Assembly: GCA_017499595.2 (NCBI GenBank)
Contig: CM039003.1
Span: 496,001-560,000 of the forward strand
DNA length: 64,000 nt
Direction of reading: 5' to 3'
Source of the DNA: Psilocybe cubensis
Lineage: Eukaryota
Shown here one piece after another: positions 12,379 through 63,054 of the stretch; the stretch's first letter is position 1, and every line of letters begins with the position of its first letter. The notes below the pieces were generated by a model. It was not told where the DNA came from. It ran no database searches and worked only from the letters and a program-made list of their open reading frames with translations. The position numbers and the translations under genes are program-made.

Positions 12379-13235
12379 ATGCTTTTTCTGCTTCTTCTCT
12401 CGGTAACCCTTCTAGATACTGCTCTCGGTGCTGTAAATGACGCATGCACTGCCGGAAGTACTCCAGGAGTATGTTTGTCAACCAGTACCTGCTCTTCAGC
12501 AGGCGGAACATCACACGCAGGATTTTGTCCCAATGATCCATCGACAGTGCAATGTTGCACAAAAGCATGTGCAACCTCAGGAATTTGTCGCTTTTCCAAT
12601 ACATGTAGTAGCGGACTCACTGAAACTGGTAAATCTACTAGTATTGTGGAGTATAAATGTTTTTTGATGCCGCGTTATCAGGCTTGTGTCCCGGCCCCAG
12701 CAACTTTGTTTGTTGCTTCCCTTCCGCAACAAGCAGCTGTGCACCTCCGGCCGTAAACGCTGCCACACTTGCGCTTATCAAGCAATTTGAAGGATTTGTC
12801 GCGAGTCCCGCTCCCGATCCCATTGGTCTCCCGACTGTTGGTTATGGACACCTCTGCCAAACTACAAATTGTGGGGAAGTTCCATTTGCCTTCCCTCTCA
12901 CCCAAGCTCAGGCAACGAGCCTGCTCAACACCGATCTCAAGACGTTCACGGCATGCCTTACAAGTGATATCAGTAACGAAGTTATTTTGAACGACAACCA
13001 ATTTGGTGCCTTGAGCTCATGGGCATTCAATGAAGGATGTGGCAACGTTGGAAGCTCTACCCTGATATCGAGACTGAATGTAGGACAGGACCCTGACACA
13101 GTTGCTGCGCAAGAGTTACCAAAGTGGGATATAGCTGGAGGTTCTGTCCTTCCAGGGTTGGTGACCCGACGGGCAGCTGAAGTGAAGCTATTCCAGACGC
13201 CCTCCAATGTTATTGCTCATCCTCCACAATGTTAA
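12379..13235 (+). CDS. Secreted GH24 (phage/T4-type) lysozyme with two N-terminal Cys-rich modules
   Basis: Signal peptide; one intron 12629-12681; FEGFVASPAPDPIGLPTVGYGH (E-D-T motif), NQFGALSSWAFNEG, LPGLVTRRAAE; TATA-like TATAAA at 12343. Confidence 0.92.
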
Positions 13236-13639: not shown

Positions 13640-15437
13640 ATGGCCCCAGTAAAAATGGACAACAAACCAACTCTTTGTGCATGTAAAACAGATAGCTATG
13701 ATGCATCAAAGACGATAGCGGCTACCTATCCAACCAAAGATTTATGGATATTTTCAATACCATTGCACCTGCGATACAATCCCGACAAGCCATTTGGTTT
13801 CAGCTATGTAAAAACATTATTATATTCCGTGACTACAACACTCAGTGAGTATTTTATTCACGGTCTTGATAAGCAATAATGATTCGCTTATCGACACATA
13901 GTTGTGGCCAACCTGTATTACTGTCAACCGTTATTGAGTGAGGACATTCTTCATTCGGAGCTTCCAATATACTAGAATTTTTTCCGGTCGGCGTTAGTCC
14001 AGATGTCACAGTCATTTGAAGCATCCTACGAGGAGGTGTCTAGGTAGGATTTGTGGCGAAGGTGCATAATCCCACTCTAACAATTGTTTAGAATACCAAC
14101 GTGTGTCCAGGCAGGGTCAGTGCCACTGCTGACATTTCCCAGTCAAGACTCAATTGAGTTAACTAACGCCTTTGTAGCTATGCCGTCGGCCTTTTTCTCA
14201 TTTGTCCTCTTGGAGATAGTGTCCGCCGCCGGCAGCTGGTGTTGGGACTCATATTGTGCACAACACTGCTTTCTATCGGACTTGCAGTGACAAGAGATGT
14301 AATCGTCTTTGAGGTCCTGTCCTTCTTCGTCGGACTGGCGAATGTTGCACCACAGATCTTAATCCCACTTGTTGCTGAAATTGCCCCGCAGGAAATTCGG
14401 GCATTTGCATTCTCGCTTACCCTCACTGGATTGATGTTTGGCATTCTCCTTGCAAGGGTAGTGGCGGGACTGGTGGCTGAGTTCTTTCCGTGGCGTGTTG
14501 TATACTACGCTGCGATAATCATCCAGGCTCTCGTTCTGACAGGGCTATACTTCACGCTTCCGGATTACCCTGCAAAAGGAGCTGATCCCCCTTCGTGGCG
14601 ATTACACTGGTCCACTCTCGTACTGGCAGTCACTGAGCCTATTGCAGTACAGGTCATACTCATCAACATAGGAGCGAGTGCATGCTTTTCTTATTACTGG
14701 GTTACATTGACGTTCCTCCTCGGTGGACCACCGTATAACTATTCTACGTGAGTATATAATCTGTTTAATCATGTTGTTCTCGCATAGCCTGAGTGTGGGT
14801 CTGTAGAGTTGTGATAGGTCTTTTTGGATTGCTTGGAATGGCAGGGGTAGCTGCTGGACCTATCAGCGGGCGCCTCGTCGATCATATCCGCCCATGGCAC
14901 TCACTTCTTCTTTCAATAACCCTTCTACTGGTATTTCAGGCAGTGCAGGTTGTAGCCGGAGGTATCCATATATCAGCTGTGATAGTATCCTGCTTTGGTT
15001 TGGATTTTGTGCAGCAGATACAGACAGTTGCATTGGCGACCTACATCTTTAGGTGAGCATATGACTTGTGTACTAAGTTATATTCATTTATGAGTTCTTA
15101 ATTTCTTCTATCTCTAGTATATCTATAGCAGCAATTTCACGCTTGAATGCCCTATATATGATCTCGGTATGACCAATGCCATCACTTGATGTTTCGCTAA
15201 TGCCTCAATACTGCTTCTGCACAGTTCTATGTGGGGCAGATTATTGGGTCATCCGTTGGAACTGCTATCTTCATTAGATACGGATGGAGAGCATCAGCGC
15301 TGTTTGGCCTCGGACTCTACGGCTTCCAGCTATGCGTGGTACTCGCTAGGGGTCCAAATTGCACACGACACACGTGGTTGGGATACGAAGGGGGTATATC
15401 GTTTCCTTCTCTCTTACAGGTTCAAAATGAGGAATAA
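13640..15437 (+). CDS. MFS transporter (NepI-like, NLYYCQPLL type), copy A; start codon uncertain
   Basis: Exons encode VANLYYCQPLL, GLFLICPLGDSVRRRQL, GILLARVVAG, YWVTLTFLLGGPPYNYST, ARGPNC...WLGYEGG; many hydrophobic helices. Confidence 0.88.
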
Positions 15438-15754
15438 AGTGTCATAGAGGCCTTATTGGGGGTGTATGTGCGCAAAACTGCGCTTGTCCACTCTCTTTCA
15501 TGTGAAGAAGGGAGATCGGATGATGCCGAAACTGCGGGAAAGGTGGTACACGTATTACTTTATCGATGAAGTTCAAATTCCAAACTTCGACCTTCTATGA
15601 ATCTTATTCTCTTAACTATCAGCCTTAACACGACCGTTATCCAATAAGTGGGAGTCTATTGCATAGCAAACACTTGGGTATGAAGGGAATATGTCAATAC
15701 TTGAACACAGTTGATGAAACTGAGAGGTTGATGTAATGTTGAGAAGTCGCAGAG

Positions 15755-17570: not shown

Positions 17571-20500
17571 CTAATGGGTAGGTAGGGTATTCAGCCAGGT
17601 GATACTCGGCATTGCATTTAGAATTGACTGCGTCAACTGGGTCCGCGAGACCTTGACGTCAGCTTTGGGGGCAAGGTTATTGTCCCAGGGGGCAGCTTTG
17701 TTTCCATTAAGGAAATCTGTCCAATAATCCAACTCTACGGGTAACGATAGCCGAACTTCCACAGTGTCTGCGTCGCCGCCATTAGGGTTAAAATTTTGGA
17801 TGTAATGGGTTATCTGGGACTTGAGGTATGGGACGACACCGTTGAGGATATTGTATATCTAGCCCGTGTGAGGTCAGTGAGTTCTTTTAGATGGTCACAT
17901 TGACGTACAAAGTTGTCATAGATATTGGGCACATTAACGTTGCCCGGATTGGGACCACGAAGGGGACTTAGTTGCACATAGCTATTGTACCAAGATACCC
18001 AGATATTACGTATACATGTATTGTCCTTCTTGAACAATCTTTTTGCCTAATTTATCTGATATTAACAGCTCTGGGGATTCGTTTAAGAAGTTAGGCACTC
18101 ACATCAAAACTGTTCAAGTACGAGGGGAGGCCTGCTGCTGCACGTAACCGCGCTACCTGCTTCGTTGGGCACATTTTATCCCACTTATCATCGTCTACCA
18201 GTTGGATCACATTTCTGTTTCCAGGAACAAGAAGGCGCTCTGTTGCAAAGTATGCATAATTCTTGAACACGTTTGCTTGTTGCTCCAGCATCACCATCTC
18301 GTCGGCTCCATTTGAGCCACCTTTGGTCTACTATTTAGCAAAAAAGGTACATAACAAGGGCCTGTAAGCTTACCGGGGTAACAATTTTGTATCTGCTCAA
18401 AGACCGAATTTGATCCTGACCTCAGATTCTGATTGACCCATTGACACCATGATCTATGGTTGAATGTATTAAGTATGACATTGCAAACCTGATTGAGTGA
18501 CTTACGGGCCCTTCTTGATCTGCCAGAGATCAGTGAACTGCTGTAGATGATCGATGAACAGCGATGCTAAAATGACAAATAAACTCGAGTTACAAAGGCG
18601 AAGACAAAGACAAGAATTCACCCATGCTAACTTCGTAGATGTGCTCCCGTCCGTAGATTGCTCCTCCACTTTCATCTGTCGTCAGAACTGGAATGCCGGC
18701 GGCGTTTAAAATGTTGGGTGGGTATGGGGTGTACGTCCCCAATGTAGGCTTTAGTTGTTCAGCAGGTTTTACGTCAAAGTATGTAACGATATCTGTGCCC
18801 GAGTAACCTGACATGTCCAGGGAGTATGCTGGACATGTGGTCATTGTGGCTGTCCCACTGGCACGCCGGAGTATTTGATCAGTTTGGTCATCCATTGTCT
18901 GATCATCCTTTGTGTATGTAGATGAATAATTGGCTGTGATATCTTCAATCCAACGCGCTTGAATATCAGCATATTGCCCTAGGATAGATAGTAGAAATGG
19001 TTGAATATAGAAAATTCGAAACAGTACTAGAGCACTCACCCGTGGCGCCTTGGTCATCAATATTATTATCCGAGTAGCAATAACAATCAGTGGCCCCGCC
19101 GACACCTGCAATCTCATCTCCTACAGTCGGGCAGGTAAGAAAACCGGGCAAGAAAGGTATAGCTCGGCGTTTCAAAGAAGGATCATGTTCGATTGCAGAG
19201 GCATCAGCGGATCCAACAGTCCATGAAGTCAGCGGCTTCTGAATTGTAACAGCCTCCAAATCATTCATACTGCGCTTTTGAGATGTCGGTGAGCGCTTGT
19301 TAATCACCGCATATGCCGGTATGTCCTGGTCATGGGTCATGAGAACGCTAGACCCGAGCTGTCCAGAGCCACGCGCTTCGTATGTGTAGGAAGATTCGTT
19401 GATGCTACGTCTGCTATTGCCTGATCCAGTGCCCTCATTGACGGAGTCGAAGCATGATCCTCCGAAGGGGAAATCAGCAGAGAAGAAGTTCTTTCTGTGA
19501 CATAAGTGAGCAATACGCATTTGAGCACAGAAACTAACACGCACACAACTGGGTCAGCCCTCCAGAATAATACAGAACCAGTTAGTCCAGCGTTAAGGTT
19601 GATTCCATAGTGCTGTTCAAATGTCAATCGCGATCCATGTAATAGTATTCAATTAATTACCGGATTCACGCAAAATGTGAGAGCCGACTTCCCGTAGGAT
19701 TTGTCAGTTCTGAAGGTACGAAATCATGAAATTGAAAGGCTTACAGACTGGCTCACGCTTCCAGAAATGGAAACTCCTGCATACATGTCTGCTTCCGCGA
19801 AAACCTGGAGAAGACATAAGCATTGACAGGACGGTGCAAAATAGGTTCGCCCTACCTCGGCATCTATCAAGGACCCTCCAAGTACGTTGACACCAAGTTG
19901 TAGTGACGGGATCTACAGAACTGGGGTGTCAGGGTATGCCTGAAAGGAGGGGCAGTTATACGAACAATATGAGCCTGACAAGGAAAGGTGAGTAGAATGA
20001 TAATTAAAAAAGTAGGGCTGCGTACCTGAAGAGAACCTTCCAAGTTGACGTTGTACCCTACAGCAAAATCATATCCCACGTTATCGCTCGTGGAATTAAC
20101 AGGAGACGATGGATCCTCCTAAAATGCGTGCGCAGGGTTATGTGTTGAAAATAAAGTTTGGTGAATCGAACATCAATGGAACTTGCCTCGTCAGGGTTGT
20201 CGTCTGCGAGACCAAAAGCATAGTTGATTGGCTATAAATGTGTATGATAAGTTCAAATCAACTGGAATGAAAAGGTTGAATTTGCATACCGGAAATGTAT
20301 ACCCAATAGTTGCAGTGTACCGTCCAGACAGACTCAGCTGCCCCGTGAGCTCCCCGTAGAGGTGAAGGGATGGACCAAGTGTCAAAAGACCAGGATAGTA
20401 AAGTCCTGGGAAACCAAATGTTGCCAGTTCACGCCTGCCACTGGTGTAGTGTGCCTCTGCAAGTCCAGAGATTGTAAATGACGCTTGGGCGCCTGCGCCT

Positions 20501-23500
20501 GCGTCAAAGAATACGTATGCCTGTTGAACTGCGGGAGGGACGATGGTCGCTTCGAGGTAATAACCGAATTGACTGGTGATCTGAGCCGTTCCAGTGACAC
20601 TGATATCGAGGCTGGATGAGAAATTCGGGCACTGTTGCTCTGCGTGGAATATCGTGTACGTATCTGACCACTGAATAATGCGTTAACGAAGCATTGTGAC
20701 ACAAATAAAGGCGTATACATACATGATAATCTCGGCTGACTGTCTTCGAAGAGCGGACAGTGTTAAGCTTCTTCAGCCATGCATCGAATGGTCCAAACCA
20801 CCTCTTATCGTACTCTAAGGGTTGGTGGAAATCACGTCTTCTCCTGGTGCTGGTGGTGCCAGAGTCAGGCGGACTGTTAACGATGGCGTCCCTGAATAAA
20901 AATATTAAATATAGCGAAATGAACGTCAGGCAAATAACGTGCCAGTAGCCAGGGATATCCGTCTGTGGATATGAAGTTAGTAAAAACAGATGTATACCCT
21001 GAAGTTACATACCACATCGGCTCTCATCCTACATTCAGACAAATCAGCGGCTTCCAAACCTATGTCAATGAAAGAAGCTTACAGGACAGGCCCGTTATCC
21101 TCCGGTATGGCAAGGAAATTGTAGTCAAACGACAGGGAATATACCATTTCATTGGTAGGCTTCTTCGCCTGATGTTCTTGGGACAAGGAATTCTGGTCCG
21201 TATGTTCAGTCAAAGAAACTACACGAGCGTAAGGTCCCAGACCACATGATTTGGGCATTTGGATAATGGTATGCTCAGCTTGGCCAATGAAAACGTGGCC
21301 ACAGCCGGAGTCATCATCGTCCATTGATTTTGAGCAATATGCCAGAACCTTCAAAATCGGGTCAAAGTTAAGCCCCCAACCAATAGACGTTTGACTAACC
21401 GTCTGTGGCTGATCACTGGTCGAATCGCAGCCAGTAACCACCCAATCAGATGCGATATCCATTGAGCTGACGGCACTGGGATTTGGGGATGAAATAAAAA
21501 GCTCTACCCGCTCAACCAATTAAACATTAGAAATTTAAATTGGGAAGCAAAGACGCTACCTCCAAATGGACTATCATTCTCTCTCCCGTCATCACCAATT
21601 CCACTTGAACCCGCACCGGTTGAAGATGTGCTCGAAGTGCCAGTGTTATCATCGAAGTCGACAGTAAAAGTGACCGGTTCATCTGCGTCCACAGTAGAAG
21701 GGAACACGTCGCTTACAGGAATGGGGACAAAAGACGACCCTATTTTTCACAATATAAATCATCAATATAGGGTCCGGAAATGGGTCAATGTTCAAGTTTA
21801 CCTGAGGGTGGGTCACAGCAATAATAACGTTTGTTATTTCCAAAGCATTGACTGCTTGCATCTCCCTGAATATCGCTAACTGATAGGTAGCGTGAGCAGG
21901 CCTATTGATGCAGTTTTACGACCTGTACTCACATATGGCAATCTGACCAGGGCTGCACACGGCATTTAAGCACGCAGGTGGGTCTCCAACCCATTTACAA
22001 TTTTTATAACCAGCTGATTGTCGAATTTATTTTATAGTTGAACTACATAGTTAAAGATGACTTACGTTTGCAGCAGACCGGTTTTGTGGGTTCCAAGCAC
22101 TCTACAGGGCATAGTGCAAACGGTCCTTGACCCGGGGGGGTATCAGCGCAGCCGTCGATGTCGATGGGCCCCAAATTTACGTGAGTTTGAGCAATAAATG
22201 GGGGATCACATGTCTGTGAATCACAAGCTGAGGAAAGGAAACAAAGTGGTTTGATATTCCAACTAACATGATCGAGAATTGCCACTCACGTCCGGTAGAA
22301 CACGCTCCAGCTTGTGGGTCCCCCGATGAGCAGCAGAATGCTTTAGAACCCTGAATGCATGTTGGATGTCCATCATCTCCAGTTTTATCCAGAGCGAGGA
22401 CGATTTCCCCAACATTGCATCGTCCATTACAACTTGTCCCCCCTCCTCCTCGCCACGAACATTTCTGAGGTTCGTCTCCTTTAGGACAGCAAAGGCGTGC
22501 GAGCTTGTTCTTCGGACATGATCCTCCGGTGGGTATTTGGCTCAATCTTGTCAGTGAATCGTATCCGGGGGGACATTGTTGACCACAGCCTATGAATGGT
22601 TGACGTTGAGGATTGAGTTGAATTGTGAGCCTAAAATTGAGCGTACCAGTTACTCGGCACTGATTGCCGGACTCGATCGAAGACGGCGTATTGATGCCGA
22701 TATCGGGATACAGGCCAGTTAGAGCGGTATACAAGTTGTCGTCCTGGTCAAGGGACCATATCATTGTCCCTTCAGGAGTGCAAGTAACCATCTATGTGAT
22801 TCTTTGGAAATATTGTATAACTAACCTCCTAGACAAATGCTATTTGCATAATTCAACTTCATTTGCAATGTTTGAGCGTCGTCGTACTATGGTTATGTGA
22901 GATGTGTGTTTCAATGGAGAGTAAATGCAACACATACAGATACCCATTGATTGTCATTCCACGTTATATACTTCACAGCCGCAGCCTCGTCAAATACAGG
23001 AATAGCGTTGCTGGTGCTGTCCAAGAGTTTCTGAATTTCTGAGAACATAAGTGTCCCAGAGTTAAGGGAGCACTCGCCCGGATCGCCTCCACCGGAGAAA
23101 GCACAGCCCGGGGAGCTGCATTGCTGATTTAACGAGCTTTTAATTAGCGTCGAAGATGGGTGTATAAATCTCGGATATGAAATCTTACCCCGTCCACAAG
23201 TGTGAAAGAACGCCCGTAAAAGCCTATCCCCATCACCATCTGGGATGGATCGATCTGAACATTTCGAAAAAGTTGCATGGTGTCCATAATCTCTGTTAAA
23301 TTTGTGTGAGCTAGGACGAACGGGCCGACATTTGTGTCGTTCTTATCCCAGACGCCATGTAGATCGTAGGTCATGATGTTGACCTAAAATACATTGAGGA
23401 ATAAACTCAAGACAAGTTGAACATTTACATACCCAATCAGCCGATTTTAAAAGAGCTGGAAGATCAAAGTGCTGAAGGTACCAGTAGCTTGAGGGTGCCG

Positions 23501-24759
23501 TAAAGGTTAATCCGTATCCTCGAGGGGAGAAGGCTGATTTAATTCTGGATAAGAAAATTGGGAAATTATCTTTATCTTCTGGTGCTCCTCCGCGCTCGGG
23601 TGCCACAGGATACTCCCAATCAATGTCAATTCCGTCAAATCCATAAGCCTGTAATACCCCAAGTGTGCTTTTAATAAATGTATTTGTCGCACTGAGGCTC
23701 CCTGCCAAATTGCTGAAGATATGTTGTGTCGGCTAAGGGGTGTTTAAATTTTATAAATAAAAATATCAGAAGCCTGTCAACCTACAGGATCGTTAAAGTT
23801 CCATCCGCCAATTGACAGGAAGACTTTAAGTGTTGGATTTCTCTCTTTTAAAGCCGTGGTTCGTATCCAAAGGGAACTGTCGTTTGCCGCCATTTCCTTC
23901 AGAGTGAAGTCCTCAGAAATAAGGGCAAATGCAAAGTTAACTGCCATCGTTGTTCAGTTCAATGGTTCTACCAAGGTAGTATTAAACTTACTATGCGTCA
24001 AAGTCTCCGCTGATATTAACTCTGGAGGGTACATATCACAAGCCCGACTGTCGCTAGCCACCGCCCACGCCTAGATGAGAGTAAATTATCTACCGGTAAC
24101 TCGGAGAATAAAGGAACTGACCTCATAGTATCCAATACGTCTGTGTAGAGCCGTTGCCTGGTTGTCCCCACAAGACTCTTGAGCTGGTGGCTTACAGAAA
24201 GACTGGCAACCAGTCTCACAGAAATCTAATTTATCACAATAGTCAGGTATGCCCATTCGAAGCGGTCCAAAATCTACCCTCTGTAGTTCCGCAGAAGCCA
24301 AACTATATCAAACATGGTTAAGCGTTAATCAATGCAATATACAAGCGGACTCAGACCTGACTGCAACAGACGTTCAACGGGCACGTAGAATTCGCAACAG
24401 CAGCAAATTTTCCGCACTCTGCTACGGCACCGCAGTTTGAGGTACAAGGTCCACCTGAAGACACAGGAGTGCAGAAATCAGGTCCAAATCTTTTTCACAT
24501 TATACATCATTCAACGGATAATATTTACTTCCAGTATGCTCGACTCACCCACAAAAACCGGACTCCGAGTTGCAACATGCCCCGTTTCCACATGGAATAG
24601 TTTTCGTGCAACTACCAACTGGTAGTCCTGTGGTGTTTCCCTGGGCATTAACTAGTCCCCAATGATATACGAACACTTGGAACAAAATGTCAGCATAGAG
24701 AAGTGCTGCAAGAGTCTTGGAAACCCACGAAAAAAAATTAATGCAGTATGAAGTAGCAT
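17571..24759 (-). CDS. Very large secreted subgroup-C (killer-toxin-like) GH18 chitinase: signal peptide, two hevein/CBM18-like domains, GH18, Cys-rich repeats, beta-rich domain, C-terminal extension
   Basis: Spliced N-terminus MLLHTALIFF/LFVYHWGLVNAQ; CCNSESGFCG and CPLNVCCS/FGFCGTTE; FLSIGGW, GFDGIDIDWEYP (intact DxxDxDxE), MTYDLHGVWD, WSLDQDD; downstream exons link through canonical splice sites to stop at 17571. The single-gene join of the 3' part is inferred. Confidence 0.85.
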
Positions 24760-25691
24760 GACAAGATACTGCAAAGAGATGCTTTGCCCACTTGCAAACT
24801 GGTGTCATTTTTAATCGACTCGAGACCAATGCAGCTGATACAACACGGTCCGATAAGTGACTGGGTCATGAGGGTGGCGATAAAAAGAATGTTGGCTCGG
24901 ATATTTACTAGCTACGGCATTCCTCACATTGAACCTCGAATCGAGAGGACCTCGCGGTCCATCGGTGCTGACAGTAGCTTCCATGAGCATGCTACACACG
25001 TGGAACTAAAACGAAATGCTTGCTCCATTCTTTTGTTGCGTACTTGTCGGTTGTCGTAGCCAGTTATAATGCATGAGTGGATACATATGTAACAATTGCA
25101 ACGCTGGATTCCTTTCTAATTAATAAGTTCTAAACCCTCATGACCTTTAACGTGCCACATCCTCCAACTTTGTTGAGCATCCAAGTCACCATCCCGGACC
25201 GACAGCATTTCCTCAGATGTAAACAATATTTCATTGAAACATGAACCTTCTAGGTAGTTAGAAGAACGGTCTTAGCCTAAATTTAAAATTGCCACAAAAC
25301 AGGTATAGAAACCTTTGTTCCAATTACAATGTGCCAGCTCAACCGCCGGATTGCCTATACCAGACTTCCGTGAAGCGAGGACCGAAGCATTGCTTGCTCA
25401 CTTATCAATAATTACGAGGTGAAGGCTATAAAAAGACGGTTTTGCCTTACTCTGCCGAATATCAAATTTGTCAAGAGGAAGCAACGCGCCTCGTGGTTCC
25501 CTGTCGAACTTTTTCCAACCTGACCGAGTCAGATTCTGATTGTAGCGTCAATAAACCGGTCTACACGGGTTTATCCACCGAGAAATAGCATGTACTTTAT
25601 AGTTTATAGTGGAACTGATTTGTATTCCAATTCCCCAGCCTTTTCGTCAACTCTGGCAATTGCAACGCTGCTGTGAGAGTCAAGGAAAACC
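24760..25691. promoter_or_regulatory. Putative bidirectional promoter between the chitinase and LysM genes
   Basis: 932-bp gap between divergent ATGs; TATAAAAA at ~25427; exact 14-bp direct repeat CAATTGCAACGCTG at 25093 and 25657. Confidence 0.5.
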
Positions 25692-28600
25692 ATGTCAATA
25701 ATACTGAGGCTCTCACTACTCGTCTTATTTTCTTTCCTACTCCCTGTTTATGCATCTGTGAACAAAATCAAGCAGAAGGAAATAATCCAGAATGAGAAAT
25801 TCCATTCCAGTTTACTCAAACAACTCGCCGACTCTCGGACAAAGACTGATGTATTCAACGATACATTGTCACCCTCAAATCCATCTTTGGATTTCAGCTC
25901 GTCAAATTCCTTACCTTTGCTTTCAACAAATGCCAGCGTCAGCCTGCAGATATACACATCGGACACACTCCCATCCAATCCAGCTCCCAATAGCGTCTGT
26001 GCAGCAGCCATGACAGCAGCAATACCTTGTAACTCATCAATTCCGCTCATGGCGTTAGTTGCGTATCTTATACTTCCAAGGATCACCTATTGATAATAGA
26101 TATTATATGCCTCTAGACTTGGCCCATATCTCTTCACTAACGACCTTCCCACTCTCTGCACCGACGATTGTTTACATGGACTTGTATCGTATCGTGCAGA
26201 TGTGGTTTCAGCTTGCGGGAACTACTTAATCACTGATACAGGGGGCAACTCGTATCCCCCAACACTGGCAGTGGACTATGTTTCTGGTCCTTATACCGTG
26301 CAGTGTCTCAAAGATCCCGACAGCGGAAATTTTTGCGGCACTGTCATTGAATCTTACAATACAACGGACGGGCTACTGTCGCTTCCAACAAATGAATTAT
26401 GCACATTTTGTACGCTGGAGACTCTGAATGCAACGTTATCCAACCCGACTAGCTTTTCGGATGACCTCGCTGATATCCTTTCAAGTGCCATCAACACGTG
26501 TGGGACGTGGGTATTTCAAAAAGCATCAATTTTGTTCCCTTAAGCTGACCTCATCCAGCGATTTTGAACAGTATAATGTCTCTTCAACGGGCGACCAAGT
26601 TGTCATATCAACACCGTTTGGGGTCAATTCTACGACCGCGCCTACTGTTGACTGCACAATCACCGGACAAAACATCTCGACGACTGAGGCGACAACCTGT
26701 GCGGATGTAGCTGCCCAATATAGCGTGAGCGAGTACGACATTTTCTCATCAAATCCTCTCCTCGACGCCGATTGCAACATTGAGTCTGGAACCGTGCTCT
26801 GTGTTCCTCAACAATGTACCACTTATGTTATTGCGGTTAACGATACGTGTCAGTCGGTCGCTCAGCTGGCGGGCACAGTTCCTGGCACAAGTCTCAACGT
26901 GACCGCGTCCCAAATCCAATCATTCAATCCCGACCTCGGAACGTACTGTCAATTGATTTCACTTCGTGTGGGGAAAGCAATCTGCTTGAGTCCAAATGGC
27001 GGGTGGCCTTCGGTAGGGGTGACTAGCGCAGGGAATCCATCTGGTACACCTACCGCCGCTGCACCTATCCCAACCCCCACTGTTAACGGCACAACATCCG
27101 CTTGCGGGAAATACTACCTTGTACAAGGCGGGGATATTTGCCAGACTATTTGTCTCACCAATTCCATCACGTTTAGTGATTTTCTTACCCTTAATCCGGG
27201 TGAGTAATTTAATTTTGCATACCTTTTCGCTGTGGTATTTAACTTGAGGCTCAGAGGTTGACGCCAACTGCACCAATTTATGGCTTGGATATAACTACTG
27301 TGTTGCTCCCTACCCACCATTCTCATCCGTAACTGCCGCACCACTCCCCACAACCAATTATACAAGCGCTACTATCTTCAGCTACCCTATTCCTACGGCG
27401 AATTACACCATTACCTATACGTCTAGTCGCGTCACACCTGCTGGAGTTCCAGCTCCAACAAATATTGCTAACGGAACACGACCCGTTGCTTGCGGGAGCT
27501 ATTACGATATACAGGTGAATATCGCCCGTTTTTTTAGGTTTCATGACGCTTTATTGCAAATCATTAATCTGAGTCACGATAGACCGGCGATACCCTCGAC
27601 TCTGTTTCTGAATCCGTTGGTGTTGATGCATCCCTCCTCGCAACATGGAATCTTGAACTCAGCAGTGGTGTTTTACCCCCTGTTGGCTCCGCTATCTGTG
27701 TGACCTTTCCAGAAGGCAATTACACTTTACTCGCCGCACCGCGTCCCACAAATACATATGCCAATGCCACCACAGAATGTGCACAATACTACACCGTCCA
27801 AAATGGGGATGGATGTAGCTCCATTGAAAGCTCATTTGCACTTACAAACTCACAATTTGACCAACTTAATCCCGGCTTAGCAAGCAGTTGTACGAATCTC
27901 GTCCTCGGGGATGCTTATTGTGTTCTCCCTACCGCTCCCTTCTCTTTATCCAATTCTACCGGCCTACCGGATAACGTTGCGCCGGGGACAATCACTGATG
28001 GATGCACCACCTACTACACCGTCAAGTCTGGAGATTCTTGTACTGTGGTGGAGGATAACTTTAACATAACCTTGGCGCAATTCACGACATGGAATCCAGA
28101 GATTGACAGCCAGTGCACCAACATTGAGGTTGGATTGGCGTATTGTGTTGCATCCTCCTCTTCCTCGTCAACTGGTCCGCCCAGTAATGTTGCGTCAGGG
28201 ACAATCACAGATGGATGCACTGATTATTACACTATCGTATCGGGAGACTCTTGCCCTGCTATTGAAACTAAATTCAACATTACTATGTCACAAATCACGA
28301 CGTGGAACCCTGAGATCAACAGCGAATGCACGAACATACAGCTCGGACTCGCATATTGTGTTGCATCCAGCCTGGCCCCACCAACCAGTGGACCTCCCAG
28401 TAATGTAGCATCCGGGACTGTCACATCCGGGTGTACATCATATTACACCGTAGTCTCAGGGGACTCCTGCTCCGTCATCGAGGCTAAATTTGGCATCACA
28501 TTGGCTCAGTTTACGACATGGAACCCCGAAATCAATAGCCAGTGCACAAATATTCAGGTTGGCCTGGCGTATTCATCAGAAAAACTACAACCTCTAGCAC

Positions 28601-30142
28601 TTGCGGGAGCTCACTTTCACTAGTAGCTTTTTTCCCTTCCACCACTTTCACCAACACTTTTCAAACCACTTTCATTACTTCCGACACTTTCATCAACTTT
28701 TTGCTCTTTCTTTAATTATCCAAAACAATTTTTCATATTTGGTTTAGTTTATCTCAGTACATGTTTCTTGTTTCTTTGTAGCACTACCGAATGCTTTGAA
28801 TTCATTGTGTTGTATACAATATCACTTGTTAGCAAAGGAGAAATTCAACATCAAATTTGTTGAAGTTCGTTCGGGCTCCGATTAAATATTCACGTGATGT
28901 TCAGATAACAATCATCGTATCGATTAATCTTTCTTTCTTCCCGTCCTCACACATCTCCGCAGTTATGTTTGTCAGTTTAGGTTAAAAATGTATTGTTCGT
29001 GAGTTATATTCCTGCTTCAATGCGTTCTGACATGACTTGCTGACTTGTTTTAATATGTTTAGAAGTATCTAGGTTCTACCCTTCGTCTATCTCCTCCCTC
29101 CATCTATCCCCCCTCCCCTCCCTCCCTTCAACAAACCAAACCAAACCTACTCCTCCTCTCCTCCTCTCCTTCTTCAAGCTTTGTTGCACGGCAGATTTGT
29201 AGTCATTGTACGGATGCTATGATGGTGGAAATGGTATGCATCTGCTATTGCTTGTGTTGCCTATGCTGACCTCAGTGACCTCAGGCCAATGACCATATCG
29301 CCGCTTTTGTGTCAATAGTAGGAGAAGTGGAAGGTGATATCTGATACGGTAGTTAACTGGTATGTCATTCTGCCGTTGGTCTTCTATACCCTCAAAGGTA
29401 GCGTTTCGTTGTATATCAATTGTTGGTTGGTAGTTTGTTATGTAGTTCTTATGTAGTTTCATGTATACCTATGATACCTGTCTTTCAGAATATAATATAT
29501 TATCTCAATTAATATCAACAATCAAGCGAAAAAATGAACTAGCTAACAACACTTCCGAAAGTGTGAACATCTAGTTTGTCGCTTTTGATCACCCTTTCAG
29601 TACTTTCGAAAGTGAAAACACTAGCTGTGAGAAATGGGGTCTGGGTAGCTGCAAGCGTCAAACACTTGCGCACTTTTGGCACTTTTTGGCCCTTTTCTCA
29701 CTTTTGAAAGGTGCGAAAGCGTCTGCTAGTGGGGTTGTACTTTTTCTGATGTTGTGTTACTTCAAGTTTTTTGGGGTCATCTACCTCGGGCCCTCCGTCC
29801 AACTTGGCTTCTGGGTCACTCGCGAATTGCACCAGCTATCATACTGTTGTTTCTGGAGACAATTGCCCCGCCATTGAGACATCTTCACATATCGCAGCAT
29901 CCGATTTCTTCAAGTGGAATCCCGAGGTATCGCATGACTGCTCAAACATCCAGGTTGGGGAGGCGTATTGCGTAGCAGGTGGTGGAAACCCGTGTAAAAA
30001 GATATACGTAGTTCAATCCGGAGACTTTTGCTTTGCGATCACGCAGAGTCAGAATATCACCCAGCAGCAGTTGATCGCGCTGAATTCTTTCTTAGACACT
30101 AATTGTGATTTGGTTGTCGGAGAAGGTATATGTGTTGGATAG
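25692..30142 (+). pseudogene. Secreted multi-LysM (CBM50) protein with a Cys-rich N-terminal domain and about 10 LysM domains, disrupted by a transposon at 28574-29751
   Basis: Signal peptide; repeated fungal LysM units (CxxYYTVxSGDxC...WNPEI...CTNIxxGxAYCV). Removing the insertion plus one TT restores AYCVTSSFLGSSTSGPPSN in frame to stop 30142; as is, translation stops at 28623. Confidence 0.88.
28574..29751. mobile_element. Non-autonomous TIR DNA transposon (1178 bp), CACTA/CMC-like
   Basis: 19-bp TIRs CATCAGAAAAACTACAACC / GGTTGTACTTTTTCTGATG (1 mismatch), 2-bp TSD TT, multiple subterminal CACTTT/AAAGTG repeats, no recognisable coding capacity. Confidence 0.88.
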
Positions 30143-32342: not shown

Positions 32343-34127
32343 ATGTCTTCGAACTCTACTCTCAACGGAGACATCGAGGTCGCCTCCAAAGAGCAAGAAA
32401 AACCTTTCCATGGTAGTGTTCTCCCAACCGACCTATCCGACGGTCCCTCCAAGGACTTCAATTTTCTCCCCATTCCAAAACGGCTTCGATATCATCCCGC
32501 AAAACCATTTAATTTCAATATATGGATGAACTGGGGGCTTAGCTTTGCTGCTACGTTCCGTAGGTTGCCCATGCATATCCGCAGCAGTAATCACTCATCA
32601 CCATGTCTTATTTTTAGTAATCTCAAACATGTATTATTGTCAACCATTACTCAGTACGTTCACCGGCTCGCTCAATATCTGAGAGAGTAAATAGGCCGAT
32701 AATGACTGTACTAAACAGTTCAAATGTCGATTACGTTCGGGGCTTCCTACGAGGCCGTCTCCAAGTAAGCTCAATTTTCAATTTGAAGTTTTGTTCTAAC
32801 AGTCTTCAAGAGTCCCGACTTTGATACAGGCAGGGTAAGCAAGTTGTTGCTTTGCCGCAGTAGCTCAATCCCGTATTCAAAAAATGTTTAGATATGCAGT
32901 GGGGCTGTTCTTCATCTGTCCATTAGGAGACCTTGTGCGACGGCGGCAGCTGTTGTTGCTCCTCGTATTCGTCACAGCCACACTAACCATCGGGTTGGCA
33001 ATTACACGGAGTATCTTGGTGTTTCAAATCCTGAATTTTCTGATTGGCCTGGCCAACATCTCCCCGCAGATTCTGGTACCTCTCGCTGCTGATCTCGCGC
33101 GTCCTGAGCAAAGAGCATTTGCCTATTCCATTGTGCTCACCGGCATGTTGTCAGGTGTCCTCATTGCTCGAGTGCTCTCTGGGGTGATAGCACAGTTTTC
33201 TTCCTGGCGTGTCGTGTATTATATGGCAATCGGTGCCCAATACCTCATTCTCCTTGTCAGTTATGCCGTGATTCCGGACTATCCCGCAAAGAACAAGGAT
33301 ATGACTTATCAGGGTATTCTCTGGAGTATGATAAAGTACTCGGTGACGGAACCACTCGTCGTACAAGTCGAAATCATGTCAATAATGACAAGCGCGTGCT
33401 TTTCGAGCTACTGGGTTACGTTAACCTTTCTACTAGGAGGACCGCCATACAATTATTCAACGTAAGTTATAATCTATAAACCCATTTTATTAACAATCGT
33501 AGTGCTCACGTCTTGTTTAGTCTGGTGATTGGACTCTTCGGTCTACTAGGCCTTGCTGGAATGGCCATGGGTCCATTTGCTGGTAGAATTGTGGATAACA
33601 TCGCACCTTGGTATGGAATGCTCGTATCGACCATTCTGCTTCTGGTTTTCCAGTCTATACAGACTGCTGCTGCAGGCTTTAGCATTGCAGCCGTCATTAT
33701 AGCGTGCATTGGGTTGGATGCCATTCGGCAAATGCAAAATGTCTCGTTGACTACAGCAGTTTTCAGGTATGTGATCTTCAATTTGTCCTCTCCGATCCAG
33801 CGGATTGATCATTTGCTTTCAATATAGTATTGAAATGGGAGCTGTATCCCGACTTAACGCCCTGTTTGTACTCGCTGTGAGTATGATTTATCCCAAAAAA
33901 AATTATTCTCAATTTTATTCTCATTGCTTCTTTAGTATTACGTAGGGCAGCTAATGGGGACGTCTGTTGGCACAAAGATTTTTGTTGACCATGGCTGGAG
34001 AGCATGTGCTCTCTTTGCTATGGCTCTTTACGGGTGCCAACTTCTTGTCCTTTTTGCCCGGGGACCGCACTGCCCGAGGCGAAAGTGGCTTGGTTATGAA
34101 GGGGGATTCAGGATGAGGAAATCATAA
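32343..34127 (+). CDS. MFS transporter (NepI-like), copy B
   Basis: NMYYCQPLL, GLFFICPLGDLVRRRQL, GVLIARVLSG, YWVTLTFLLGGPPYNYST, ARGPHC...WLGYEGG; intron positions match copy A; stop TAA 34125-34127. Confidence 0.9.
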
Positions 34128-58884: not shown

Positions 58885-61800
58885 TTAGTCGGCCAAAACT
58901 CCCAACTGCAACGTGAAACCATCGTGTGCAACGCGAGGTAAAGCCTTTGTGAAAACGTCTGCCAAATTGTTTGAAGTGTTGATGTAAACCGTGTCGAGCG
59001 TCTTCTTCTCCACCAAGTCGCGTAGGAAATGAAATGCAATGTCAATGTGCTTCGTACGGGCATGGAATTCTGGATGATGCGCAATCGAAATGGCTGCCGT
59101 ATTGTCGGTAAAGATGGTTGACGTTGATGGAATGTGGAAACCGAGCTCCGTGAAGAGTGAGCGGTGCCATAAGACTTGCTTCGCCGCATGCGTTGTGGAA
59201 ACGTATTCGGCTTCAGCGGTTGAAAGTGCGACCGTATTCTGTTTCTTCGAGCTCCATGCCACAGCGCCGCCTGCTATCGTAACCACGTATCCGCTAGTTG
59301 ATTTCCGATCGTAGTTTTCAGCCCAATCGGCGTCGCAATAAACATTGAGATTTACGTCCAAAACTTGCGAATCGCCGCCGTAAGTAAGTTTGTGATTGCG
59401 CGTGCCCTTCAGATAACGAAATATACGTTTGACAGCGGTCCAATGAGTCGATTTCGGCTTGCTGGTGAATTGCGCGAGTTTGTATACCGCAAACGCGATG
59501 TCTGGACGAGTTCCGAGTGCCAGATACATGAGCGAGCCGATGACCGTTGCATAACTGAATCCTAAACGCGAATTAACCTCCCCCTGACCGTCTCCATCCT
59601 CCCGAACACCTTCATCCTTATCCAATCGCACGTTCGGGTCCATAGGCGTCGAAACGGGGTTCGCGTCTTGTAAACCAAACTTCTCGAGGAGTTTGTCGAT
59701 GTAGTGTGCTTGCGAGAGCGAAATGTAATGGTCCTTTTGCTCGAGCTTGAATCCTAGCATCATCGAGGGCTGACCCATCGATTTAACGTCGAATTTCGAG
59801 CCTAATTCTCGCTCCAGCTGGTCGTTGAGCGAGTCGTTTGTTGAGAAACTGATTATGTCGTCCACCCAGGTAACCAAAATCGTAAAATCGCCGTTTTCAG
59901 CTCGACGGATGTAGCAGCAGTAATCGCTCTTGAGTTTCGTAAAACCGAATGAAGTGAGAGCGTTATCGAGTTCATGGTTCCATACGTTTCCTGCCTGCTT
60001 GAGACCGTAAAGCGAACGAATGAGACGGCATGCCTGACCAGTGCCATCGTCATAACCGGGTGGTTGGACCATATATATCTCCTCCGAGATGTAACCATGC
60101 AAATATGCACCCTTTATATCGAATTGACGCATCTTGAGATTGTGTACGGCCGAATATGCGAGTAGCGAGCGTAGCGTGTCGAATCGCATGACTGGTGCGA
60201 ATGTTCCGTCCTCGCTGTAGTCTGTACCAGGTCTCTGAGAGCATCCCTGAACGACTAGTCGGGCCTTGTACTTGATGACGTTCCCGTTTTCGTCCCGTTT
60301 CTTCGCGTAGACCCAACGGCATCCAACCAGTTTCCTTCCATCCGGAATCTTCATCATCTCCCAAGTACCCATCCGTAAAAGCGTCTCAATTTCTTCGTCC
60401 ATAGCTGCCTTCCACGCAGCTGCCTCACAGCTTTCCAAAGCTTCTTCAAGTGTCCGAGGTACGTCCAATTCGCGCATGGCAAAGACACGTTCCGAATCGT
60501 CTAAAATCGCGCCCCACAGCTGTTCTTTGACAATGTTTGCTTGCTCCGTTGCTGTAGACTTTGCGCTCGAGGTCTCGGTCGATTTTGTAGCGATTTGTGG
60601 TGCGTTTAGAGTCGTTTGGGATCGTGTAGTCGGTAAACGAGCATTCGGGTTGTTTGCCTTCTTGTAATCAACAAAATTGTGTTCACGAGCTGATCGACGT
60701 ATGCTGGGCTGTGGAATCGATGCTGTAGACGAAATAGGTTCGTTCTTGACGGTTTCTGGCTCGTTTTCGCTGGATTTAACGTCTGTCGATTCGTTACGCT
60801 CCCCCTCAGACGATAATCCAGGAATTTCGACGTTCTGCGGCGTTTCGTTTTCGTTAAACGATACGTTTCGCGATGACTTCACTGTGCGCGATTTGGGATC
60901 GTAATAACGCACAGACTTCGAGCCTTCGTTAAAACCAACGAATACCATCTTCTTCGACCGTGGCTTGAGCTTCGAAAGCCCCTTCGTCTCGTCTAACACC
61001 CATACATCGCATCCGAACTCCCGAAGGTGAGAAACATCCGGTTTCTTGTTGTGCCAGCCTTCATATGGTGTCTTGTCGTCGAGTGCTCGAGTAGGCGCGC
61101 GGTTGCGTAAATAATTCGCGTAATTGACCGCCTCGTCCCAGAGAAAGAGAGGTAAATTCTTCGCAATAATCATCGCACGTGCTAGCTCCAACAGCGTACG
61201 ATTGTAGCGCTCTGCGACGCCGTTCTGAGATGGGGAATATGGCGCCGTCGTCTCGATTTCAATGCCTCTCTCCGCCGCCCACTTCTTAATCCGCTCGTTC
61301 ACGAGTTCCTTGCCATTGTCCATGCGAATGTACCTCGGATACTGCCCAAACCTCCTCTTCACTCGCTCCCCATGATTCTCAATCGCCTTCGCCGCCTCCT
61401 TCTTGTCCTTCAAGAAAACCACGCCGTTGTATCGCTTCGCGTCGTCCATAAACGTAATGTAGTAATAAAATCCATTTACCGAGCGTGTTCCGATAGGACC
61501 CCATACGTCGCTCATGGTTCGCTCTCCAGGAACCGTGGATCGATTTTCTGCTTCTCCAGGGAAAGGTTTATGCGTCTGCTTCGCTTGGATGCACGCCTCG
61601 CACGATGGGGATGGAATAGACGTTTCGTCCACGGAAAGACCGACGACAAGATCGTTCCGGACGAGTTTCTGCAACGACGACACTGAGATATGGCCAAAAC
61701 GACGATGCCATTGATCCCAGGTGAGTTTTGGCGAGACGTAGTTGACCTGTTCCCCTGAATTAAGCTGAGCGCGAGCGTGAAGAATATACATCTGACCGCG

Positions 61801-63054
61801 TTTCGACCCTTTTCCAATAACCTTATCCTTCGCATCCATCAAAAGAACCTTCCCATTCTTAAACGACGAGCTCCTCCCATCCCTCTCAAACCTTCCGAGC
61901 GACATCAAAGCATTTTCGGCTTCAGGGATGTGTAAAACGTCTTTCAAACGATGAGTAATCGTCTGCCCGTCGACATCGAAGTTGAGGATGACTGTTCCGC
62001 GGCCTGCAATGATAGCTGGACTCTTTCCGACACCACGAACGGAGGAATTAACGAGTGGCGTATACTCGATGAAGGCTTCACGGACGGGACAAACGTGACT
62101 GGTGGTTGCAGAATCGTAAAGCCAGTCGTAACGAGAGAAGTTTGACGTCGAGTACGTGTGGTACGCAACCTCATCGTTGAGCGTAGTGTTGACGTCCTCC
62201 CGAGCCTGATTCGTCCGCCCTCTATTCTTCGTCTTCCGCCCCCTCGGACCCTTTCCTTCACGACCTCCGCCCTTCGCCCAGCAATCCTTCGAAATGTGCC
62301 CCATCTTGTGGCAATTATAGCACTCCTTCCCGCCGCTGCCATCCCTCGAACCATTACCCTTTCCATCCGACGACCCTTGACCTCCACGAACTTGAAGCGT
62401 AGTCCCTCCGGCACCATCACCTCCACGCTCCTTCCGACGACGAGCTTCTTCAAGGAGAACACCAACGAGCTCTTGCGAAGTGAGCGTAGGACGATTCCCG
62501 CTCGAGCCCAAAAAGGATGACGCATAATTCTCCCAAGATTCCGGCAACGAGGTGAGCAAAATCATGACGAAATCTTCGTCCGATACAATGCTGCCCATGA
62601 TGTGCAGCTCCTCCTGGAATTGACGTAGCTTTGCGATATGCTCTGCCATGTCGCATCCCTCCTCTGCGGTTGCCCGGAAAAGTGCTCGTCGTGTCGCCAA
62701 AACACCGAGTCGTCCCTTGGATTCCTTCACTGTGCACAACTGCGTCCACATCTCGCGCGCCGTGCGCGCTCCCAGGACGTGTACCATCTCCGCATCGCTT
62801 AACGCGAGTTCGATCCTGCATCGCGCTTTCGCATCTCCCTTATCCCACGCTGTCTGAGCTGCGATTTCTTCCGCCGTGGGTGCGTTCGGTTTCGCTGATC
62901 CTGGTCGAAGCGACGTGCCGTCCACGTATTTCTCCAGTCCGAGGTCCACCAGTACTGCTAGCATGCGCCGCTTCCACGGCATCCAATTGTGGGCCTTCAG
63001 TGTGTCGATGCGATATCCGCCGATGTTGACTTCCGCGGTTGTCGAGTCAGCCAT
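58885..63054 (-). CDS. Copia gag-pol polyprotein, 1389 aa (Gag, zinc knuckle, protease, integrase, RT, RNase H)
   Basis: CYNCHKMGHISKDC; WLYDSATTSH; WHRRFGH...CEAC; DVWGP/DNGKE/QNGVAER; FDIKGAYLHG, SLYGLKQA, WVDD; YCDADWA, STAEAE, KHID, ADVFTK, in copia order INT-RT-RH. Confidence 0.97.
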   Translation of the reverse strand: MADSTTAEVNIGGYRIDTLKAHNWMPWKRRMLAVLVDLGLEKYVDGTSLRPGSAKPNAPTAEEIAAQTAWDKGDAKARCRIELALSDAEMVHVLGARTAREMWTQLCTVKESKGRLGVLATRRALFRATAEEGCDMAEHIAKLRQFQEELHIMGSIVSDEDFVMILLTSLPESWENYASSFLGSSGNRPTLTSQELVGVLLEEARRRKERGGDGAGGTTLQVRGGQGSSDGKGNGSRDGSGGKECYNCHKMGHISKDCWAKGGGREGKGPRGRKTKNRGRTNQAREDVNTTLNDEVAYHTYSTSNFSRYDWLYDSATTSHVCPVREAFIEYTPLVNSSVRGVGKSPAIIAGRGTVILNFDVDGQTITHRLKDVLHIPEAENALMSLGRFERDGRSSSFKNGKVLLMDAKDKVIGKGSKRGQMYILHARAQLNSGEQVNYVSPKLTWDQWHRRFGHISVSSLQKLVRNDLVVGLSVDETSIPSPSCEACIQAKQTHKPFPGEAENRSTVPGERTMSDVWGPIGTRSVNGFYYYITFMDDAKRYNGVVFLKDKKEAAKAIENHGERVKRRFGQYPRYIRMDNGKELVNERIKKWAAERGIEIETTAPYSPSQNGVAERYNRTLLELARAMIIAKNLPLFLWDEAVNYANYLRNRAPTRALDDKTPYEGWHNKKPDVSHLREFGCDVWVLDETKGLSKLKPRSKKMVFVGFNEGSKSVRYYDPKSRTVKSSRNVSFNENETPQNVEIPGLSSEGERNESTDVKSSENEPETVKNEPISSTASIPQPSIRRSAREHNFVDYKKANNPNARLPTTRSQTTLNAPQIATKSTETSSAKSTATEQANIVKEQLWGAILDDSERVFAMRELDVPRTLEEALESCEAAAWKAAMDEEIETLLRMGTWEMMKIPDGRKLVGCRWVYAKKRDENGNVIKYKARLVVQGCSQRPGTDYSEDGTFAPVMRFDTLRSLLAYSAVHNLKMRQFDIKGAYLHGYISEEIYMVQPPGYDDGTGQACRLIRSLYGLKQAGNVWNHELDNALTSFGFTKLKSDYCCYIRRAENGDFTILVTWVDDIISFSTNDSLNDQLERELGSKFDVKSMGQPSMMLGFKLEQKDHYISLSQAHYIDKLLEKFGLQDANPVSTPMDPNVRLDKDEGVREDGDGQGEVNSRLGFSYATVIGSLMYLALGTRPDIAFAVYKLAQFTSKPKSTHWTAVKRIFRYLKGTRNHKLTYGGDSQVLDVNLNVYCDADWAENYDRKSTSGYVVTIAGGAVAWSSKKQNTVALSTAEAEYVSTTHAAKQVLWHRSLFTELGFHIPSTSTIFTDNTAAISIAHHPEFHARTKHIDIAFHFLRDLVEKKTLDTVYINTSNNLADVFTKALPRVAHDGFTLQLGVLAD

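Follow-up and report, generated by a model that had tools for sequence, protein, structure and literature searches.

The window analysed here is a stretch of 64,000 nucleotides from Psilocybe cubensis (contig CM039003.1, positions 496,001 to 560,000 of the forward strand). It is eukaryotic and intron-rich, and on its minus strand it carries a chitinase gene that occupies 17571..24865, with an approximate 5′ end, as delimited by tblastn and Pfam. The encoded protein is a secreted chitinase of ~1700 aa in which a signal region is followed, in this order, by a chitin-binding CBM18 module, a GH18 catalytic domain, a Cys-rich region, a beta-rich middle region and a C-terminal domain, and the same architecture is found in several Agaricomycetes. 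The C-terminal domain is the subject of this work. A preliminary description of the locus had singled out two peptides in it, YGREHIYEVSM and MVMLEQQANVFK, as a signature resembling that of HNH nucleases; both are encoded within the last seven exons of the CBM18-GH18 gene and lie where they had been placed, at 18655-18623 and 18297-18262 of the minus strand, respectively.

The translation of one exon, used as a query, retrieved an identical P. cubensis protein annotated as “GH18 domain-containing protein” (UniRef A0A8H7XM16_PSICU, 1563 aa). When this protein and P. cubensis and Amanita homologues were compared with the window by tblastn, we obtained a colinear series of exons running from ~24655 to 17574 on the minus strand. 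In the 3′ part the GT..AG introns were read by hand, which gave exons at 19494-19040, 18978-18622, 18566-18506, 18453-18374, 18320-18103, 18046-17909 and 17858-17574 and a TAG stop codon at 17573-17571, all on the minus strand; the protein spliced in this way is the C-terminus of A0A8H7XM16_PSICU, every letter identical. Contigs from two public runs of one study (X1 and X2), which are only presumed to be RNA and which cannot rank expression, show joints at 17858/17909, 18045/18102, 18318/18372, 18453/18506, 18566/18622 and 18977/19039. The CT..AC ends at all six joints are GT..AG on the minus strand, and all six introns of the 3′ part are thereby confirmed. From 18622, the X1 contigs reach 19344 and the X2 contigs 19494 over the intron, joining the core domain to the exon that carries the KRR site described below, while in a DNA run (X3) the stretch is covered in one piece with zero joints. 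Since the spliced contigs match the model, we conclude that transcription and splicing of the 3′ region follow it, with the domain continuous with the exon upstream. The GH18 exons were covered by neither X1 nor X2 contigs, which supports no inference. The exon series, the database protein and the spliced contigs all bear out the earlier placement of this region in the C-terminal domain of the chitinase. We delimit a core domain of 343 aa (residues 1221-1563 of A0A8H7XM16_PSICU) at 17574..18868 on the minus strand, supported by the agreement of hand splicing with the database protein, the contig joints and the exon pattern of metagenome loci.

Upstream, an exon with the start of the CBM18 module (Chitin_bind_1) lies at 24354..24494 (-); on its own it reaches 21.3 bits with Pfam PF00187, below the cut-off, compared with 45.8-50.3 bits for homologues of full length. 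At 24592-24548 (-), CGNGACCNSESGFCG forms another Cys-rich stretch. The exons of the GH18 catalytic domain are found at 23147..23953 (-), with E values against PF00704 from 7e-07 to 7.5e-18 on exons and of 1.8e-61 on A0A8H7XM16_PSICU, and the DxxDxDxE catalytic motif is present as FDGIDIDWEYP at 23639-23607 (-). Both modules occur in five of the six homologues scanned, the sixth being a truncated model (P0002) with neither, and no LysM domain was detected by Pfam at E ≤ 0.01 in these six chitinase homologues. P. cubensis has at least one paralogue, represented by P0002 (1067 aa), which is 69% identical over the last 424 residues and whose model begins after GH18. The database protein A0A8H7XM16_PSICU has a truncated N-terminus, without CBM18 and the start of GH18. 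Its residues ~343-428 are in a frame unsupported by homologues, a Cys-rich frame with GCGQQCPPGYDS at 22590-22555 (-) being the one that fits them, and an intron was probably read through near residue ~725 (“HVICLT”). Comparison with homologues places the zones of apparent mis-splicing at 22180-22791 and 20858-20962 (-).

To characterize the C-terminal domain, we ran a homologue search with residues 1140-1563, which returned ten other proteins, all from Agaricomycetes or unnamed, with 35-71% identity; the named genera are Psilocybe (the paralogue), Amanita, Flammula, Phlegmacium, Coniferiporia, Mycena, Punctularia and Favolaschia. GH18 is present in nine of these ten relatives, five of which have CBM18 too. 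Word-indexed searches likewise returned Agaricomycete relatives only, and a scan of bacterial and archaeal species genomes revealed no relatives of the domain. From a metagenome scan we recovered four close loci, three of which (L001-L003) have the same exon pattern. When the last exon was run by HMMER against the full library, 11 matches were obtained, six of them close fungal fragments. The other five (P0013, P0016, P0017, P0019 and P0021) were dropped as repeat-protein artefacts, all but P0016 after being read.

The two motifs stand out by their conservation in this family. In an alignment of ten rows over the last 343 residues (A1; 37-77% identity to the query), 62 columns are invariant, among them R74, E75, H76, Y78, E79, S81 and M82 around the first motif and M138, E142, A145, N146 and K149 in the second, so that motif conservation is well above the domain average. 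The REHIYE motif (18632..18649, -), within YGREHIYEVSM, has its REHxYE pattern invariant in all 19 sequences covering it, and MVMLEQQANVFK (18262..18297, -) has invariant M, E, A, N and K, written MxxxExxANxxK, in 16 of 16; the His and the Asn that the preliminary description had emphasized are thus conserved throughout. Their codons lie at 18643-18641 (H76) and 18273-18271 (N146), with that of K149 at 18264-18262, all on the minus strand. The motifs are in separate exons with three introns between them, and after splicing the distance from His to Asn is 70 residues in the P. cubensis protein and 70-84 in its relatives; the spacing of 60-65 residues estimated earlier was therefore roughly right. 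Other invariant residues in A1 are D88, D246 and D292, the tryptophans W97, W108, W218, W221 and W336, and the tyrosines Y128, Y225 and Y245. The family to which the domain belongs is uncharacterised; we take it to be very probably functional, and probably catalytic. We also observed that conservation extends to the last residue (17574-17585, -): of the 15 sequences reaching the C-terminus, 13 end in LPxH (nine of them in LPTH) and two in LPTW, a pattern which suggests that the C-terminal His or the free carboxylate may have a role.

The core domain is preceded by one of two conserved dibasic sites. In the fungal secretory pathway, sites of this kind are cut by Kex2-type proteases. The first, a multibasic and putatively Kex2-type site (RRRR|DFHQ, 20822..20845, -), divides the chitinase part from the middle part and is conserved as [KR]R-[DN][FY]H[QR] in 11 of 11 homologues. 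The second, KRR at 19164..19172 (-), is followed by AIPFLPG from 19163; all 16 sequences that cover this place match the pattern [KR]R-x(0-2)-[IV]PFLxG, with a dibasic pair directly before (A/G)(I/V)PFLPG in every one of the 16. The two sites are ~400 residues apart, and their invariance suggests that the precursor may be cut in three. A Kex2-type protease in the secretory pathway would then release a chitin-binding and chitin-cleaving part with CBM18, GH18 and the Cys-rich region, a beta-rich middle part of ~400 aa, and a C-terminal fragment of 421 aa with the putative N-terminus AIPFLPG that contains the 343-aa core. Following KRR there are five invariant cysteines in the core, and two invariant plus one variable in the segment that precedes it; this count of seven invariant and one variable supports the segment after KRR belonging with the core. 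The middle region (A0A8H7XM16_PSICU 744-1142) is highly conserved, rich in Gly, Ser and Thr, and strand-like. Its resemblance to Pfam DUF7223, on which our literature search found no paper, is weak and below threshold (16.7 bits).

What, then, is the core domain? Its single most likely identity, which we hold with somewhat less than even confidence, is that of a nuclease effector of the His-Me type (beta-beta-alpha-metal). The [DE]H-h-h ... L-x4-N-x2-K pattern fits nucleases of this type, as the preliminary description had proposed. In the His-Me superfamily, a His that usually follows Asp or Glu stands at the end of strand 1 and a metal-binding Asn or His early in the helix after strand 2; at the level of sequence, we find E75-H76 (invariant in 19 of 19) and N146 (16 of 16). 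The likeness to a known family is closest for DUF1524/GmrSD_C (PF07510), for which we assembled 32 domains, namely that of a pEFER BREX-locus gene and 31 from sampled genomes. The pEFER gene (L005:18711-20474) reads VDHIYPK ... NLQLLEGTINNQK where the Psilocybe domain reads REHIYEV ... EMVMLEQQANVFK, with identical L-E-x3-N-x2-K spacing. When A1 was aligned with the 32 domains by hhalign, the best local alignment matched the NLtLL..N segment to residues 137-160 and, within it, the conserved Asn of the catalytic helix to N146. Moreover, the family-averaged His block of GmrSD_C scored best at residues 73-80 (GREHIYEV; 1.78 against -3.63 for the runner-up) and its Asn block at 135-150 (MVMLEQQAN; -3.06 against -7.16), which are the positions of our two motifs, in register and in the right order. 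Column permutation gave P values of 0.044 and 0.10 singly and 0.006 jointly, the joint value being 0.021 with the longer blocks of the single-sequence scans (both post hoc); the reversed-column control gave a joint P of 0.61. The His block of Endonuclease_1 also found its best position at the first motif (residues 72-81, YGREHIYEVS; P 0.009).

A language-model feature search points in the same direction for the motif region. With residues 1270-1400, the named clusters among the matches listed were all His-Me finger families, at 0.76-0.81 (DUF1524/GmrSD_C, GH-E, HNH_4, AHH and Endonuclease_1). One clan was common to all ten of the best family-bearing matches; scores below 0.9 are to be taken as leads only in this search, and ten same-clan matches also appear in a third of shuffled proteins. 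With the whole domain, two unnamed Ascomycota clusters came first (0.93 and 0.92), the top one consisting of proteins of ~344 aa with 192 shared features, followed by a bacterial “Chitin-binding protein” cluster (0.88, 159 shared features), and clusters of GmrSD_C, HNH_4 and AHH appeared lower, at 0.77-0.78.

If the domain is a His-Me nuclease, the ligands of its divalent metal would be E75 and N146, with H76 as the general base that activates water and with K149 and R74 in contact with the phosphate. The residues MVML would form a putative strand 2, the helix would begin at E142, and a disulfide-bearing insertion of ~60 residues would separate the two strands. The part of PMC5714182 consulted describes the inter-strand loop of His-Me fingers as one that can be very elaborate, and the DUF1524 group as including eukaryotic members, with close homologues in Agaricomycetes. 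The chitinase part may carry the domain to chitin-walled targets, for example competing fungi, where the domain would cut nucleic acid.

Our confidence in the nuclease reading stays below even for two reasons: the signals in its favour are weak, in part dependent on one another and obtained post hoc, and the fold test failed. The remaining probability goes mostly to another enzyme or binding module, or to a non-catalytic part in delivery. For the fold we obtained two AlphaFold2 models, one of the 343-aa core from 10 rows (model 1, pLDDT 55.1) and one of a 231-aa crop from 22 rows including metagenome exons (model 2, pLDDT 45.0, with hardly any residues passing pLDDT 60). Their poor quality is likely due to the shallow alignment (Neff 2.3). 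Both have, at low confidence, a short strand at 71-75 and a helix from 80, and model 2 has, also at low confidence, a helix starting at E142. In the models, this start is compatible with a strand-helix unit at the second motif, and far from showing one. Over domain residues ~173-343 both models are helical (pLDDT 63-85), which agrees, with moderate confidence only, with the helical segments predicted earlier to follow the motifs. Foldseek against the PDB and VIA-align, run on model 1, gave weak and generic helical matches only.

Several results weigh against a nuclease, beginning with the two models, neither of which has a confident beta hairpin at either motif. The domain is absent from all curated families. 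The C-terminal domain of A0A8H7XM16_PSICU has no Pfam match at E up to 1 and, apart from NGF in one member (E 0.16), Pfam at E up to 10 matched none of the ten A1 members; NCBIfam, PADLOC and PHROGs gave only two single-member matches (E 0.17-0.38). The PDB sequence search yielded nothing with the single sequence, and with the profile one chance-level match, to a dynein light chain (E 1.4). No A1 member reaches the gathering score of PF07510 (23 bits), a model against which the pEFER protein itself scores only 19.7 bits and which, at E ≤ 1e-8, had matches in 34 of the 201 genomes sampled. For the 32 GmrSD_C domains, profile comparison by hhalign fell short of significance (P 0.17 with the full alignment, 0.09 with a sub-alignment; probability below 1%), and the extended alignments put the E-H of GmrSD_C on D88-H89, where the His is variable. 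The same method found nothing against a single GmrSD-type protein and gave P values of 0.93 and 0.25 against 13 Endonuclease_1 domains, whose second block also had no match (P 0.60; joint 0.15). Loosening the gap penalties in one run gave “probability 76%”, a value that we discarded because it is uncalibrated and comes with the wrong His aligned.

The block scans themselves also call for caution. Single-sequence matrix scans were not significant (P 0.034-0.67), the expected site ranking first in three of ten sequences for each block, and the permutation tests were post hoc, as the family was picked after the language-model matches and the block limits were shortened once. At the second motif, the structural Asn of strand 2 (“GN” in GmrSD_C) is absent, residue 137 being E, S, A, R or P in relatives; this Asn is wanting in some His-Me families. 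Furthermore, the spacing from His to Asn is 70-84 residues, compared with ~35-45 for the majority of the GmrSD_C domains. In all ten members the domain is mildly acidic (pI 4.5-7.0), and many toxin nucleases are basic. Finally, conserved polar and aromatic positions occur along the whole length of 343 residues, which suggests a functional surface larger than that of a bare finger. The HNH signature of the preliminary description is partly supported, by the register of the motifs, the best local alignment of hhalign and the language-model neighbours; it finds no counterpart in curated families or the PDB, hhalign gives it P values of 0.09-0.17, and the models are too poor to speak for or against the fold.

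Alternatively, the domain may be another kind of enzyme or a binding module, acting for example on cell-wall polymers, in which E-H and N-x2-K would serve an unrelated chemistry and the likeness to HNH nucleases would be a coincidence. We consider this a real possibility, if not a probable one. The domain belongs to a carbohydrate-active protein encoded beside a LysM gene; its invariant acidic and aromatic residues exceed the need of a compact nuclease finger, its pI is acidic, our searches gave no significant similarity to a nuclease family, and the third whole-domain match of the language-model search was the bacterial “Chitin-binding protein” cluster. However, no carbohydrate-active or other family was matched either, the named neighbours of the motif region, among the matches listed, were all nucleases, and the two motifs stand in the order and register of GmrSD_C.

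It is unlikely, in our estimation, that the domain is instead a non-catalytic part in delivery or docking, comparable to the beta subunit of zymocin, that after Kex2 cleavage would aid the chitinase itself or another protein in reaching or crossing the target membrane and might carry a separately encoded toxin. Such a role would agree with the conserved dibasic site and with the seven invariant cysteines and one variable one, a number with which one Cys could stay unpaired and be open to a partner. On the other hand, the protein has no hydrophobic, beta-like segment (the highest 19-residue Kyte-Doolittle mean in A0A8H7XM16_PSICU, 1.28, falls in the middle region), and 130 residues separate its last conserved Cys from the C-terminus, whereas the Cys described for zymocin-type chitinases is near-terminal. 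The invariant polar run R-E-H-x-Y-E looks catalytic, and no candidate for a small toxin gene was noticed in the window, where no systematic search for one was made. That the region is no functional part of the chitinase at all, being either a downstream gene in its own right that annotation has merged with the chitinase or a discarded folding pro-region, is very improbable: the database model is imperfect elsewhere (N-terminus, frame ~343-428, intron ~725) and the paralogue model P0002 begins after GH18, but full-length homologues with CBM18 and GH18 from other genera, plus four GH18-only models, share the C-terminus in frame, the spliced contigs link the domain to the KRR exon, and conservation to the final residue would be unusual for a discarded pro-region.

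Returning to the nuclease reading, the genes around the chitinase bear on the role that such a domain may play. Head to head with it, ~830 bp from its 5′ end, is a gene with multiple LysM repeats that contain Cys (25692..30142, +, limits approximate; Pfam LysM E 5e-32, 2.5e-09 and 6.1e-14 on three open reading frame (ORF) pieces), with a signal-peptide-like first exon at 25692. Its product may be a partner of the chitinase. The two genes lie between a pair of MFS-type transporter genes (14239-15447 and 32884-33827, both +; Pfam MFS_1 on ORF pieces), and 4.3 kb beyond the 3′ end of the chitinase gene there is an ORF of 192 aa for a protein resembling T4-type GH24 lysozymes (Phage_lysozyme, 12657-13235, +; Pfam E 1.2e-37). 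Farther away, the window contains an apparently intact ORF for a copia-type LTR retrotransposon polyprotein (58885-63054, -; 1389 aa with gag, integrase and RVT_2), and a Tf2-type fragment at its start (19-549, +).

Judging by the architecture, the domain may be the warhead of a toxin, a role to which the dibasic sites and the neighbouring genes add some weight. The proposal can be extended to a single-gene, three-part killer toxin of mushrooms, in which a docking chitinase, a middle part that helps entry and a His-Me nuclease of a new family would be cut apart at two Kex2 sites, while the LysM protein would shield the wall of the producer; in this extended form we regard it as doubtful. The presumed cargo of killer-toxin-like chitinases is a ribonuclease encoded by a gene of its own. 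Giant Agaricomycete chitinases with two processing sites and a nuclease-like C-terminal domain would represent a different solution to the same delivery problem. Should the domain be a nuclease, the His-Me finger superfamily would gain a branch and fungal antagonism a new class of factor; otherwise there is still an enzyme-like domain of ~340 aa that lacks a characterisation and lends itself readily to expression and assay. Going by titles and abstracts, the papers listed in our literature searches contain nothing on this domain, nor on this architecture in Agaricomycetes.

Among known nucleases, the domain resembles DUF1524/GmrSD_C in an acidic residue directly followed by His, within a strand of the pattern [DE]-H-[IV]-x-[PE], and in a later L-E-x3-N-x2-K after a hydrophobic strand. 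It differs from that family in having no Pro after the His, no Gly-Asn in strand 2 and no DUF262 partner domain, in an inter-motif spacing about twice as long and with two conserved cysteines, and in being attached to a chitinase and secreted. The pEFER BREX-locus protein used for comparison, a DUF262-DUF1524 protein whose record reads “DUF262 domain-containing protein”, is presumably BrxU. An A1 profile run against 401 sampled Pseudomonadota genomes gave a single chance-level match (E 0.019, with three stop codons). With Endonuclease I/Vvn (PF04231), whose members are secreted or periplasmic and have a long disulfide-rich loop, the domain shares an E-H-[IV] strand, an extracellular location with disulfides and, going by the part of PMC5714182 consulted, a long and elaborate inter-strand loop; the second block of that family, DLHNL..N..RSN, is unmatched here (P 0.60). 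The bacterial polymorphic toxins (AHH, GH-E, WHH and Colicin-DNase) likewise join a large delivery part to a small nuclease-like C-terminal domain, and polymorphic-toxin families are among the language-model neighbours, a resemblance for which sequence similarity is not demonstrated.

There is a parallel in architecture with the zymocin of Kluyveromyces lactis and with zymocin-like clusters, which share a carrier with a chitin-binding module and GH18, dibasic processing sites (here seen in sequence only), a nearby LysM gene and a proposed role of fungus against fungus. In the sections consulted, Heneghan, Salzberg and Wolfe (10.1101/2024.10.25.620242) report chitinases of filamentous fungi with separately encoded, small anticodon-nuclease toxins that have a Glu at mature position 8, and describe the cluster chitinases as being of the LysM-bearing C-II kind and forming chitinase-LysM pairs, which our LysM-chitinase neighbourhood recalls; among Basidiomycota, those sections name only Panaeolus, Mycena and Trichosporon. 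The C subgroups of killer-toxin-like chitinases, for their part, are described as apparently unique to filamentous ascomycetes in the consulted part of Karlsson and Stenlid (2008; PMC2614207). In A0A8H7XM16_PSICU no Glu is present at position 8 after either dibasic site, and the Pfam scan of the larger ORFs in the window gave no candidate for a gamma toxin or an immunity gene, small secreted ORFs not having been searched systematically. Unlike the chitinases of zymocin-like clusters, the Psilocybe chitinase has CBM18 and, as in the six homologues scanned, no LysM, the LysM repeats being in the adjoining gene, and its putative effector is fused to the chitinase itself. If the doubtful three-part toxin does exist, it would be the fused counterpart of the three-subunit yeast zymocin, with a different nuclease fold.

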